Shown here piece after piece: positions 3,395 to 8,068 of a DNA stretch of 64,000 bases. Where the stretch lies: positions 1,905-65,904 of the forward strand of contig CAVRMF010000002.1 in NCBI GenBank assembly GCA_963721905.1, written 5' to 3'. The first letter of the stretch is position 1; every line of letters starts with the position of its first letter. The notes under the pieces were generated by a model. That model searched no databases, was not told the origin of the DNA, and saw nothing but the letters and a program-made list of their open reading frames with translations. The DNA is from an uncultured Alphaproteobacteria bacterium (GTDB lineage: Bacteria; Pseudomonadota; Alphaproteobacteria; Rhizobiales; Beijerinckiaceae). The position numbers and the translations under genes are program-made.

Positions 3395-3562
3395 GTGCGC
3401 CGTGAGAAGGCGGCGCTTTCCAGTGGGTGCAAATCCCACCCGGCGAACGCTCCAGCCGGAAGCAACCGGAGCAGTCATGGAGGTGACGAAATGGCTGAAG
3501 CCTTCGGTGTAGCTGGTCACATATAGGTGACGGCGCGAGTGTGCGGGCCGCAACTTGAGTGA
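3395..3562 (+). mobile_element. Group II intron A, 5' end only (part of domain I)
   Basis: Starts with GTGCG (consensus GUGYG), followed by the hairpin GTGGGTGCAAATCCCAC and domain-I-like stems; interrupted at 3563 by intron B. Confidence 0.7.
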
Positions 3563-3675
3563 GTGCGCCGGGAGACCGGCAAGGAGTAGGTGGTGAAAGA
3601 TCCCATGGGCGTCTGGATAGCGACCGGCGCGCTCGGCAGAGTGAGGTCGCTAAACCACCCACTCTGGAGACGACC

Positions 3676-4365
3676 ATGCAAGTTGCAGCTGACCGAACCG
3701 ATGCGTCGACCGCTATCCAAACAGATCTTCCCGCAATTTTTGTGTCTTTGGAACTCAGCCGATCTATCTGGCTGATCACATCTTTGTCGCCAGGCGCCGG
3801 GGAGAAGATGTCGAAGCATTCGATTCGGGCCGGCGATGTGGCGGGCTTGCTCGTGCGGTTGGCCCAGCTCAAGGAGAAGGCGCGAGGGCGGGCGGGGCGG
3901 TACTTTCCCATCATCGCCATTCAAGAGGCCGGATTGGACGGCTTCTGGATCCACCGCGTTCTGCAGAGCGAAGGAATTGAAGGCCACGTTGTCGATGCCG
4001 CGTCGATTTTGACCTCGCGCCGCCGGCGCCGAGCGAAGACCGACGGGATCGATGGGGAGACGCTGGTCCGCACGCTTTTAGCCTACAAACGCGGGGAGCC
4101 GCGGGTGTGCGCGATGGTCAAGGCGCCGACACCCGAAGAGGAAGACCGCCGCCGGATCTGCCGGGAGCGCAAGACGCTCGTCGGCGAGCGAGTGGAACAC
4201 GTCAACCGGATCAAGGGGCTGCTCTTCGCCCAAGGCGTCTCTGAATATGAGCCGTTGAAGCGTAACCGCCGGGCGCGGCTGGAAGAATTGAAGACGGGCG
4301 ATGGCCGCCCCTTGCCGGCGCACCTGAAAGCGCAGATCAGCCGCGAACTCGACCGCCTCGAACTA
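3676..4365 (+). pseudogene. IS110 recombinase, N-terminal part (RuvC-like DEDD domain)
   Basis: SLELS, QEAG and AKTDGID motifs; GGAG RBS; interrupted at TA 4364-65. Confidence 0.9.
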
Positions 4366-5493
4366 AGCAAACTCCGTCAGCTTGACCAACGAACCGCAGG
4401 TGTGATTCGGTCTTCGCGCTGATTCGCGGAGGCGGGGCATGGCGGGCAAATCTCGGGTGACGGCGGGTGAGGAGCAGCGCAACGCGCTGCTGACATTGGC
4501 CCATTCACGCGACCGCGGGGAGGCTGATCGGGCGCGGGCGATATTGCTGACGCTGTCGGGATGGACCAGCCCGCGCATTGCGGAGGCCTTTGGCGTGCGC
4601 GAAGACACGGTGCGGCTGTGGCGCAGCGCGTTCGCGCGCGGCGGTGTCGAAGCGTTGAAGGCGACTGTGGCGCCCGGCCCGCCACCGGTAAAGACCGAGG
4701 CTGCGCTGCGTGTCGTCACGCCTCTGCTCGAAGCTCCCGTCGCCGACCGGCCCAACTGGACGATCCCGCGTCTCATGGCCGAGATCGAGGCGCGCGAGGG
4801 CGTCAAGATCGGCAAGTCGCAGTTGTCCCGGGCGCTGCGAAAAAAAACTTCCGTTGGCGGCGGCCTCGGCACACGCTGAAAGGCCGCCAGATTGCCGACG
4901 AGATCGAACGCGTGGGACTGCGCCTTCAGCTGCGCAAGGCCCAGGCCGAAGCCGGCGACATCATTCTCCTCTACGGCGACGAGAGCGAGGCCCTGACGCA
5001 CCCTTATCTGGCGCGGGCGTGGGCCTTGCGCGGTGCGGACCTGCGGGTGCCGGCGCCGGGACAGGCCAAGAAAGTGGCGATCATCGGCTCGCTCGATCAG
5101 GTCACGCGCCAGCTGATTGTGCATACGAGCCCGACCAAGCGCAGCAGCGACTTCATCGCTCACCTCGAGCAGCTCGACCACCTGTTCGGTCCCCAACCGG
5201 GACGGGCAATGAAACCGGTCGTGCTGGTCGAGGACAACGGGCCGATCCATGTCAGCAAGCTCACTCTCAAGGCCCTCGAGGCGCGCAAACACTGGCTCAC
5301 CGTCGAGTGGCTGCCGAAATACGCACCCGAACTCAACGATATCGAGGTTGTCTGGCACGATCTCAAGGCGCATCATCTGGCCCATCAGACCTTCGCTGAC
5401 GCCGACGCCCTCGACCGCGCAATCCACGCCGCCGTGGCCGCCCTGAACCGGGAGCGAACCGTCAATCCGTTGGTCCTTCAAAGAATCTCTGCT
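4366..5493 (+). mobile_element. IS630-family element 1
   Basis: Flanked by TA (4364-65, 5494-95); ends AGCAAACTC... and ...ATCTCTGCT (short imperfect IR). Confidence 0.85.
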
Positions 5494-5496
5494 TAG
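4439..5496 (+). CDS. IS630 transposase with a probable programmed -1 frameshift
   Basis: HTH ORF 4439-4879 joins the DDE ORF (YGDES, VEDNG, LPKYAPELNDIE) by a -1 shift at the A8C run 4840-48. Confidence 0.85.
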
Positions 5497-5750: not shown

Positions 5751-6954
5751 GCGCCAAACAATTGATTCATCGCCTGATTCGTCTGGGCGTCGCGATTCGC
5801 GAGGAGGCCCGGATGAACATACGCTACCATGTCGAACTGAGCGAAGCCGAGCGGGGTGAACTCGCCGCTCTGGTAGGCGGCGGCAAGCATCACGCCCGCA
5901 AGATCAAACGAGCCCAGATTCTGCTCGCCGCTGACAGCGGGCTCAGCGACGACGATATTGCCGCCGCTGTCGCTGTCGGCGGCTCGACCGTTTACCGGAC
6001 CAAGCGCCGCTTCGTTGAAGTCGATCTCGAAGCCGCCCTGAACGAAGAGCCGCGGGCAGGCGCCGATCGCAAGCTGACCAGCAACGAAGAAGCCCTCCTC
6101 GTCGCCACCGCCTGTTCGAGCCCGCCCGAAGGCCGCGCCCGGTGGACGCTGGAGCTGCTGGCTGGCGCAATGGTCAAGCTGACCGACCATGACAGTCTGT
6201 CGCGTGAGACCGTCCGCCGACGCTTGGCCGAGAACCATCTCAAGCCCTGGCAGAGGGACATGTGGTGCATCCCCAAGGTCGACGCCGAGTACGTCGCCCG
6301 CATGGAGGACGTGCTCGACCTCTACGCCGAGCAGCCTGACCCAGAGCGGCCGGTGGTCTGCTTCGACGAAAGCCCCACCCAGCTCATCGGCGAAGCGCGC
6401 CAGCCGATCCCGGCCGCGCCGGGACGGCCCCAACGCTTCGATTACCAATATCGCCGCAACGGCGCCGTCAATCTCTTCGTCTTCCTTGACGCCCATCGCT
6501 CCTGGCGCAGGGTCAAGGTCACGGATCGTCGCACCGCTGACGACTTCGCCCTTTGCATGCGCGAACTCGTCGATGTCGACTTCAAAGAAGCCGAGCGCAT
6601 CCGCGTCGTCCTCGACAACCTCTCCACCCACACCGCCGCCGCTCTCTACGCCGCCTTCCCGCCGGCCGAGGCGCGCCGCACGCTCAGGCGGCTTGAGTTC
6701 CACTACACCCCCAAGCACGCCAGCTGGCTCAACATGGTTGAGATCGAGATCGGCGTGCTCAAAGGCCAATGTCTCGATCGCCGCATCGAAAGCTGCGACC
6801 GCCTCGTTGCCGAGATCGACGCATGGCAGGCCCAACGAAACCAAAGCGGCGCTCGAATCAACTGGATGTTCTCCACCGACAAGGCCAGAACCAAAATGGC
6901 GCGCGCCTATCCCGATCCCTCGCTCAAAAAGTCATAATCACCGTGCAGGTGAAC
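5496..6954 (+). mobile_element. IS630-family element 2 carrying a passenger HTH gene
   Basis: IRs GTTCCCACGCACAGAGGTTTTGAC and its counterpart at 6931-54 match at 17/24; TA at 5494-95 and 6955-56. Confidence 0.85.
5813..6937 (+). CDS. IS630 transposase, intact
   Basis: HTH plus VVCFDE, VVLDNLSTH and HYTPKHASWLNMVEIE motifs; GAGGAGG RBS. Confidence 0.92.
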   Translation: MNIRYHVELSEAERGELAALVGGGKHHARKIKRAQILLAADSGLSDDDIAAAVAVGGSTVYRTKRRFVEVDLEAALNEEPRAGADRKLTSNEEALLVATACSSPPEGRARWTLELLAGAMVKLTDHDSLSRETVRRRLAENHLKPWQRDMWCIPKVDAEYVARMEDVLDLYAEQPDPERPVVCFDESPTQLIGEARQPIPAAPGRPQRFDYQYRRNGAVNLFVFLDAHRSWRRVKVTDRRTADDFALCMRELVDVDFKEAERIRVVLDNLSTHTAAALYAAFPPAEARRTLRRLEFHYTPKHASWLNMVEIEIGVLKGQCLDRRIESCDRLVAEIDAWQAQRNQSGARINWMFSTDKARTKMARAYPDPSLKKS

Positions 6955-6956
6955 TA

Positions 6957-7433
6957 GTTCTGCCGCAGCTGAAGGCGGTCGAGGCGGAACGGGATGCCTT
7001 ACTCAAGCCGGTGAGCGAAGGGTGCCCAACGCCTGCGGCGATGCTGGCGCAGCTGAAGGGGATGGGACCGGAATTTACGGCAATACTCTGGTCTGAAGGG
7101 CTGTTCCGCAGCTTCAGCAACCGAAGGCAACTGGCGGCCTACGCTGGGCTGGCGCCGACACCCTGGCAGAGCGGATCGGTCGCTCACGAACAGGGGGTCT
7201 CCAAGGCCGGCAATCCGCGGCTGCGAACGACGATGATACAGCTCGCGTGGTTGTGGCTGCGACACCAGCCAACCTCGACGCTGAGCGTCTGGTTCCGAGA
7301 GCGCGTCCGGAGCAACGGCGGTAAGATGCGCAAGACCACGATCGTTGCGCTGGCTCGCAAGCTCATCGTCGCGTTGTGGAAATATTCAACCAGCGGCGTC
7401 GTCATCGAGGGCGCCGTGATGAAGACCATCTGA
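6957..7433 (+). pseudogene. IS110 recombinase, C-terminal part (Tnp domain)
   Basis: GMGPEF, AYAGLAPTPWQSG and VALARKL motifs; rejoins 3676-4365 in frame (RLEL|VLPQL) to give 388 aa. Confidence 0.9.
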
Positions 7434-7729
7434 GCGCAGACGCTCCAACACAATCCCTCCAATCCCCGGGACCTAATCGGTCCTGACGGATCCAGGCGAT
7501 CGGAACCGAGCAGTGGACTGGCTTAAACAGCCGAGTGAAAAATGGTCTCGACCTCCTGAGCCCCATCCGCCGAACGCGGGATATTGGTGCAGCTGCTTGA
7601 GTGGCGACCGGATGTGAGTTTGATCTGGTGCGGAACAACCAGGTCATGAAATAGGGCTCAGACCTTGGATACCGAAACAGCAACCGGAGTTTTTTGATGC
7701 GCCGATGAACCTGACTACTTGACCCGAAA
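7434..7729 (+). ncRNA. Putative bridge/seek RNA of the IS1111-type element
   Basis: Loop 1 has GCAGTGGACT (7510-19) and GTGAAA (7535-40) around a hairpin, matching the target flanks. Loop 2 has GGGATaT (7578-84) and ATGTGAG (7612-18) around a hairpin, matching the donor junction. Confidence 0.75.
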
Positions 7730-8068
7730 ACGCCCATGTGAGTCCACTGCGATGAAGGAGTAGCGACCCACATCGGCCCCAAGCCGTGCGCGGGCGTCCG
7801 CGAGGACGTCGGCGAAGCGTCGGCGGGGAGCATATAGGCCAGCCATTGAGCCGCGAAACCGTTGTCATCCCGGGTGCCGACGCCGTTTACTCATCGGAAG
7901 GCAATATGGACGGGTGCGCTAACGCGAGTGCCCGCTCGACCCGGCGTGGTCTAAGACCCTGGCATGTATGGACGCTCCTTGCGCGGCAACCGGGAGATCT
8001 CTGGATCGGCCATAGGCCCTTTTGGGTCACGTGGTCCGCGACGGGAAGGTGAGGAGCCGTAGCCGCCG

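Follow-up and report, generated by a model that had tools for sequence, protein, structure and literature searches.

A probable group II twintron wreck in a Beijerinckiaceae contig: an RF02005-type intron inside domain I of an RF02003-type intron

A stretch of 64,000 nucleotides (nt) from an uncultured alphaproteobacterium of the Beijerinckiaceae (assembly GCA_963721905.1, contig CAVRMF010000002.1, positions 1,905 to 65,904, forward strand; the whole stretch is referred to as the window) was analysed for an intron-in-intron arrangement, or twintron. It contains parts of two different group II introns, an outer one of RF02003 type (intron A) and an inner one of RF02005 type (intron B), the latter split by a nest of insertion sequences (IS). 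A sequence-only reading had proposed that B, described there as class-E-like, entered domain I of A by retrohoming, guided by pairing of its exon-binding sites (EBS1 and EBS2) with intron-binding sites (IBS1 and IBS2) in A. Positions below are those of the window, and contigs given without a genome handle belong to the source genome. The features at the locus are as follows (RT, reverse transcriptase):

3368..3394, plus strand: 5' exon of intron A; the flank AAnGACCGC... is conserved among A copies (alignment of C16, C19, C15 and C13)
3395..3562, plus strand: outer intron A, nt 1–168 only (5' GTGCG, part of domain I); RF02003 match and copy alignment
3550..3555, plus strand: candidate IBS2 GCAAC (GCAACG in unoccupied sites), pairing with 7861–7865; tentative
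3557..3562, plus strand: IBS1 GAGTGA, the 6 nt directly 5' of intron B, pairing with 7887–7892
3563..3599, plus strand: first 37 nt of intron B (GTGCGCC... to the hairpin loop TGAAAG); the C11 copy begins at the same base, and in G288:C3 and relatives this head joins the rest of B without a break
3600..7742, plus strand: IS110-family element (IS110-X) in the first domain I hairpin loop of B; filled/empty comparison of G288:C2 with G288:C3
4363..5493, plus strand: IS630-family element 1, within the IS110 transposase gene; about 20 genome copies at 99–99.9% identity; HTH and DDE_3 domains
5494..6957, plus strand: IS630-family element 2, abutting element 1; copies on C18, C3 and C34; DDE_3 domain
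7743..9418, plus strand: remainder of intron B (domain I from the IS110 insert onward, domains II–IV, RT/maturase gene; no domains V/VI); RF02005; 94.2% identical to B of G288
7861..7865, plus strand: candidate EBS2 GTTGT, internal loop after GAGCCGCGAAA; same loop positions as EBS2 in introns L017, L018, L028 and L218
7887..7892, plus strand: EBS1 TTACTC in a hairpin loop; Rfam structure, local fold and covariation with the 5' exon in 59 introns
8069..9418, plus strand: RT gene of intron B; ATG at 8069, +1 frameshift by an extra A at 8091; the last 40 or so C-terminal codons are absent

The extent of intron A was defined by an Rfam scan and by comparison with other copies. The RF02003 domain I model matched 3421–3558 on the plus strand with 95.5 bits. 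The base equivalent to 3395 (GTGCG) is the start of A in five other source-genome copies (C16, C19, C15, C13 and C8), and the short 5' exon is conserved across the A copies of that genome. Homology of the window to uninterrupted A copies stops at 3559–3562; in C16 and C19 the intron continues past this site (...CTTGAGGTGA ACGCCGAGCAAGC...) for the remainder of domain I, and the window therefore retains only the first 168 nt of A. Farther 3', A of the source genome carries its RT/maturase gene, followed by domains V/VI (RF00029 at C19:63349–63423).

Intron B starts with GTGCG at 3563, directly after nt 168 of A. Its RF02005 part was matched at 7739–7959 on the plus strand (173.5 bits, over the full model). 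In uninterrupted relatives, namely the copy at C2:77748 of the source genome and introns at eight other loci of the bacterial family, the 37-nt head runs through the hairpin loop TGAAAG into the RF02005 part unbroken; B therefore consists of 3563–3599 plus 7743 onward, with the IS110 element in its first hairpin loop. The dinucleotide AG is repeated at both IS110 junctions, so that 3598–7740 is an equally possible extent of the element (empty site GTGGTGAAAGTCCAC). Two other delimitations were tried and rejected: RF02003 and RF02005 cannot be two halves of one intron, as both models cover homologous parts of domain I, and GTGCGG at 7629 is not the 5' end of B, as it lies within the right end of the IS110 element and is conserved in relatives of that element.

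The 5' end at 3563 was also weighed against a scarcely credible alternative, in which GTGCGCC is the left end of the IS110 element and there is no intron-in-intron junction at all. The IS110 transposase gene begins only 114 nt downstream, and the diverged copy of B on C11, which starts at the base equivalent to 3563 behind an unrelated flank, shares this start together with the IS; both would fit such a left end. Between the window and C11, however, the IS110 element is 98–99% identical, whereas the 37-nt head and the downstream intron are only about 78–90% identical, and related IS110 elements begin at the equivalent of about 3596. More than 60 introns begin with the same sequence, and in one copy of a related genome (G288:C3) the 37 nt are continuous with the rest of B with no IS between them, an empty site that already refutes this alternative. 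A compensatory change ties the two parts of B together across the 4.1-kb IS insert, with GGTGG/CCAC in the window and GGAGG/CCTC in C11.

The pairing between the last retained bases of A and domain I of B was analysed against the structure of RF02005. TTACTC (7887–7892) falls in the apical loop of the hairpin immediately 5' of the conserved GAAGGCAA, on which the RF02005 alignment and the local fold agree. It makes six pairs with GAGTGA (3557–3562), including one G-U, and a seventh, an A-U pair of 3556 with 7893, is possible. The chance of a six-pair match at fixed positions is about 0.001 from base frequencies and 0.7% empirically, the latter being the share of 6/6 pairings when EBS1 of one intron is set against the exon of another of the same type. 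For covariation, one genome per species was scanned for a motif specific to RF02005-type domain I, and 59 distinct introns from many phyla were extracted. At fixed loop positions 35 of the 59 pair 6/6 with their own 5' exon, versus 0.7% of mismatched pairs; when a register shift of up to 2 nt was allowed, this rose to 47 of 59 versus 2.9% of mismatched controls. Within the bacterial family, the bases at the EBS1 positions complement the last six 5' exon bases in ten introns of this type, perfectly in 6/10 (for example CAAAGA with TCTTTG). The diverged copies C11 and C2:77748 both have CCGTCC at the EBS1 positions, and their exons end in AGACGG and GGACGG, respectively. The assignment of TTACTC as EBS1 is correct, because it occupies exactly the loop positions validated by covariation and pairs with GAGTGA; the EBS1/IBS1 pairing put forward by the sequence-only reading, with its one G-U pair, holds in coordinates, Rfam alignment, fold and covariation. 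As a separate observation, an unoccupied A copy at C15:~56624–56640 has GAGTAA·ACGC at the B site, and this GAGTAA would give TTACTC a perfect 6/6 Watson-Crick IBS1, better than the occupied GAGTGA sites.

For EBS2/IBS2 the outcome was mixed. All four motifs of the sequence-only reading were confirmed at the positions given there, among them GCAAC at 3550–3554 and GTTGT at 7861–7865. The proposed pairing of GCAAC with GTTGT exists, and GTTGT lies in the right loop: intron L017 has AACTAC there, pairing with exon GTAGTT, L018 has GTTTA, pairing with exon TAAAC, and L028 forms a 7-bp helix between this loop and its exon. A Bradyrhizobium barranii plasmid intron that is 81% identical to B has GTGTTA at the same loop positions, which pairs with TAACAC and leaves the same 2-nt spacer before IBS1. 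Among the 59 introns, 41% reached a helix score of at least 5 when this loop was paired with exon positions -17 to -6, versus 17% of controls. In the unoccupied sites of other genomes GCAACG makes six base pairs with CGTTGT, for a score of 5.5 that about 8.5% of controls also reach. No EBS2 was found in the C11 copy, the C2:77748 copy and L016, where it was sought. Exon bases pairing with intron positions 69–76 were considered as an alternative EBS2 and rejected, since those intron bases are paired inside the Rfam structure. The five base pairs of the window are by themselves not above chance, and the assignment stays tentative but plausible. In IIE/IIF introns EBS2 is dispensable for self-splicing, and a role in retrohoming has been suggested (PMC3753933).

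For the search for further copies, 130 nt around the A/B junction were compared with 400 genomes of the bacterial family. In G288, a genome of the same genus, the full junction was found at 97% identity at two loci among the matches listed, and a third copy came on top. In G288:C3 (L064), B is uninterrupted, measures 1912 nt and has an intact 491-amino-acid (aa) RT/maturase gene (RVT_1, weak GIIM) and domains V/VI. The junctions read ...GCAATGCGAGTGA / GTGCGCC ... ACCGCGAT / ACGCCGAGCAAGC, that is, A...GAGTGA / B / ACGCCGAGC...A; A resumes exactly behind B, is complete on both sides and has its own intact 441-aa gene. G288:C2 has the same composite, but with an IS110 element in B at the same spot as in the window. 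A base-exact twintron with A on both flanks is thus present in G288:C3 and C2, and the window has its 5' side. The sequence-only reading had named as a check whether other copies of B lie in other introns behind GAGTGA-like exons; those of G288 (C3, C2 and C6) are all inside A at the same base, and the 5' exon of the C3 copy ends in GAGTGA. The empty site was found as GCAACGCGAGTGA·ACGCCGAGC in A-type introns of G354, G322, G272 and G040, and as GAGGTGA·ACGCC in C16 and C19 of the source genome, five genomes in total. The insertion point lies between nt 168 and 169 of A, in subdomain Id; as judged from the alignment with B, it is shortly upstream of the CGAAA loop of A and of A's own EBS1-type hairpin.

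These junctions bear on the alternative that A and B were brought together by chance or recombination in a mobile-element graveyard, with a coincidental EBS1/IBS1 match. In favour of such an account, broken elements are densely nested at the locus, at least one inversion has occurred there, and the 3' junction is missing in the window. It is contradicted by the G288 composite, however, where both the 5' and the 3' side are base-exact and A resumes precisely, and it is equally at odds with the empty sites in five genomes and with a match probability of 0.001–0.007 for EBS1. We consider it very improbable.

We read the region as the wreck of a group II twintron, in which B retrohomed into domain I of A by EBS1-guided pairing before the composite was destroyed (probability roughly 0.9). 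Insertion by reverse splicing has as its signature the combination seen here of exact boundaries, alleles with and without the insert, and complementary EBS and IBS, and the retrohoming proposed by the sequence-only reading is supported by the EBS1/IBS1 pairing, the exact G288 junctions and the empty sites. The insertion would have followed the established group II retrohoming pathway, and it may have taken place at this locus or in an ancestral copy. The following observations weigh against this reading. A's continuation beyond nt 168 was sought downstream and is absent throughout the window, so that the window alone cannot show a twintron. The 3' junction of B is likewise missing there, and only the 5' junction survives. 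The EBS2 helix of the window (five base pairs, one of them G-U, score 4.5) is equalled by about 29% of mismatched intron/exon pairs. Finally, all four known copies of the B lineage (window; G288 C3, C2 and C6) are within A and are possibly copies of one composite.

The last point leads to another account of the origin: the composite may have formed once in an ancestor and spread as a unit, through movement of the outer intron, duplication or a larger mobile element, the window holding a decayed copy at whose locus no retrohoming of B took place. Every known B-lineage copy does lie at the same base of A, G288 C3 and C2 moreover have a third intron (C) in common, inserted in A at one and the same site, and the divergence between window and G288 is similar for both introns (A 97.6% over 168 nt, B 94.2% over 1668 nt). 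Against a single origin, the bases just upstream of IBS1 vary (CTT in the window, TGC in G288 C3 and C2, CGC in G288 C6), which fits the invasion of separate A copies, although later mutation could also explain it; and there are many A copies without B. We regard such a single origin as quite possible without assuming it. It refines where the composite arose and leaves the twintron standing.

The formation of the composite can be pictured as follows. An RF02005-type intron whose protein has no endonuclease domain would have inserted by reverse splicing and reverse transcription into domain I of the RF02003-type intron, at a target chosen by pairing of its EBS1 loop UUACUC with GAGUGA and probably assisted by EBS2 (CGUUGU), which pairs with GCAACG a few bases upstream. 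In the source genome the composite was later broken up. An IS110-family element landed in the first hairpin loop of B and in turn received two IS630 elements. The RT gene of B gained its frameshift, B lost its last ~230 nt, domains V and VI among them, and nothing of A past nt 168 remains, with an inverted A-type 3' end beside the break.

The decay of B was followed along its gene. By alignment to the 491-aa gene of G288, the extra A at 8091 shifts the reading frame seven codons in. The RT domain is still recognized (RVT_1 at E=8.7e-32; 57% identity to a paralogue over 444 residues), and the BLASTP alignment to the paralogue ends at residue 466. Homology to the intact B of G288 extends over 1668 nt and ends at 9418. 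Domain V was sought with RF00029 in window positions 1–14000, and no match was obtained even at E<=10; in full-length relatives domain V follows about 1.87 kb after the start of RF02005, and the G288 orthologue and L047 have both domains V/VI. The window copy of B is therefore truncated and, since domains V/VI are absent, cannot splice; with its IS-split domain I, its frameshift and its missing 3' domains it is a dead, non-functional relic.

The IS110 element inside B encodes a transposase with DEDD_Tnp_IS110 (PF01548) and Transposase_20 (PF02371) domains, whose gene lies in two pieces (about 3677–4361 and 6957–7433). Copies of the element occupy one and the same site, TGAA-AG-TCC in the loop of the first hairpin of domain I, in four introns of RF02005 type: window 3598–7742, C11:3250–4812, G288:C2 (L065) and G288:C6 (L092). 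IS110 relatives at 70–74% identity have unrelated, non-intron flanks. A target choice for the hairpin of B that is specific to this IS110 lineage is what these data point to, because the site is the same even in C11, whose intron parts are only 78–90% identical while the IS copies are 98–99% identical. In a side observation, two further IS110-family relatives, about 75–77% identical to the window element, were seen to interrupt other A copies in opposite orientation to A:

Source-genome contigs C1, C16 and C19: IS110 relative at the start of the RT gene of A
C15:52987–56560: another IS110 relative, within domain I of A

The third intron, C, is of RF02003 type, measures 2001 nt and has an intact 453-aa RT/maturase gene. 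It lies in A right after domain V (L064, G288:C3, 4345–6345), with junctions ...CUGUCCGGUU / GUGUG ... CCCUAC / CGAUGAG, and its EBS1-position bases AACTGG pair with CCGGTT. With B in domain I and C after domain V, A therefore hosts two different inner introns. C is also present in the source genome (C16 ~117213–121971, C15 and C11).

Beyond the break of B, one more fragment of an A-type intron was identified:

9433..9565, minus strand: inverted terminal part (domain VI) of an A-type intron with its 3' exon; 94–98% matches to C19:63382–63516 and others, RF00029 at C19:63349–63423

Between the break of B and this inverted 3' end (9419–9450), 15 nt (minus strand TGTCACACCATCTCG) are identical, in reverse complement, to a piece of domain VI of intron C in G288; they could be left over from C, reflect microhomology where a rearrangement was joined, or match by chance. 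Farther downstream, a repeat of about 95 nt (9874–9968), with at least 17 copies at 77–84% identity across many contigs of the genome, adjoins a minus-strand tRNA gene at 10128–10199.

Relatives of B also occur on plasmids. At 80–82% identity they occur on Rhizobium, Bradyrhizobium and Sinorhizobium plasmids, with different EBS1 and non-intron targets, and a relative of the same length at 66% identity is common on enterobacterial plasmids. The latter, 1908 nt long and 66% identical to B over its whole length, was seen in E. coli records, mostly plasmids; in a plasmid collection, 3715 of 4470 matching records were from Klebsiella. It may be the Kl.pn.I5 of the literature. Head-to-tail tandems of RF02005-type introns were also observed (L173 in Mesorhizobium sp.; L107/L108 in a metagenome-assembled genome of the Actinomycetota). 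In these, the downstream copy has as its 5' exon the 3' end of another intron of the type (...CCCTACCGCGAT/C), with which EBS1 makes only 1/6 pairs, and the tandems were therefore not made by ordinary EBS1-guided homing.

As to the class of B, Pfam identified RVT_1 and GIIM but no endonuclease (HNH) domain in the proteins of all three introns, a state also found in intron-encoded proteins of classes A, C, D and F (PMC3552965). The B orthologues of G288 and L047 have a domain V with the 5-nt loop GAAUU; five instead of four nt in this loop are a peculiarity of IIE/IIF introns (PMC3753933). A and C have 5-nt domain V loops too (GAAAC and GAAAU), and their domain VI, at about 140 nt, is very long, which is associated with IIF (PMC3753933). 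For the alpha/alpha-prime contact, in which class E has alpha-prime at the end of an Id3 stem-loop, UAGCG and CGCUA could pair in the window copy; the pairing is not kept in relatives (alignment by eye), where no consistent pairing was found. Intron classes are defined by protein phylogeny against reference introns (PMC3552965), and the label 'class-E-like', which fits two hallmarks, is compatible with the data but unproven.

Few twintrons are known from prokaryotes, and the case adds a clear one from the Alphaproteobacteria, with the nearest plasmid relatives coming from Rhizobium and Bradyrhizobium. It provides base-exact empty and filled sites and a series of natural EBS variants that fixes EBS1 for the RF02005 type as a whole and, with less certainty, EBS2, a definition useful for annotating and retargeting such introns. 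The stacking of mobile elements is visible as intron in intron, IS110 in intron and IS630 in IS110, in a window copy that is itself functionless. Tentatively, this layered community of selfish elements may still be active: B and C may have retuned their EBS to conserved ribozyme segments of A (domain I for B, the domain V 3' strand for C) as regular homing sites, with A as a perpetual landing pad and the IS110 lineage targeting the first hairpin of B. In that case G288, where all three intron proteins are intact, would be expected to show continued mobility and splicing in a set order, with B and C leaving before A.

Comparison with known systems places the find among few. In Methanosarcina acetivorans, group II introns home site-specifically into other group II introns and form nests that put no host gene at risk (Dai and Zimmerly 2003, summarised in PMC4424553); a perpetual landing pad has been proposed for Methanosarcina. 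The likeness lies in A of G288, which carries B and C, each with an EBS1 matching its site. The Methanosarcina case is archaeal and, to judge by the title of the paper, concerns homing into the open reading frames (ORFs) of related introns, whereas the present one is bacterial and concerns domain I and the domain V 3' strand; nesting is deeper there, while the window copy was additionally invaded by DNA transposons. The twintron of Trichodesmium erythraeum lies in a conserved protein gene, its sequential splicing was shown in vivo, and both introns are chloroplast-like IIB (Pfreundt and Hess 2015, PMC4649490). It too is bacterial, with an inner intron in domain I of its host that must leave before the outer ribozyme folds; the present introns have non-coding repeats as exons, no endonuclease domain and a domain V loop of IIE/IIF type. 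In Thermosynechococcus elongatus, intron lineages target another intron, and an IS has inserted in one of the outer introns as well (Mohr et al. 2010, PMC2882425); the inner introns there are ORF-less and lie between the first two ATGs of the outer ORF, whereas B encodes an RT and sits in domain I. In Thermosynechococcus, near-identical inner introns are seen within outer introns that have clearly diverged. The twintrons of Euglena chloroplasts share the intron-within-intron architecture arising by intron insertion, and are described as organellar, degenerate, ORF-less and located in essential genes (Copertino and Hallick 1991, as cited in PMC4424553). Bacterial and archaeal twintrons are thus already known, rare though they are in bacteria, and the present case adds one, the particular points of which are that both inner introns target ribozyme segments of A, that three intact genes are found in one related genome, and that an IS110 element has specialised on the hairpin of B.

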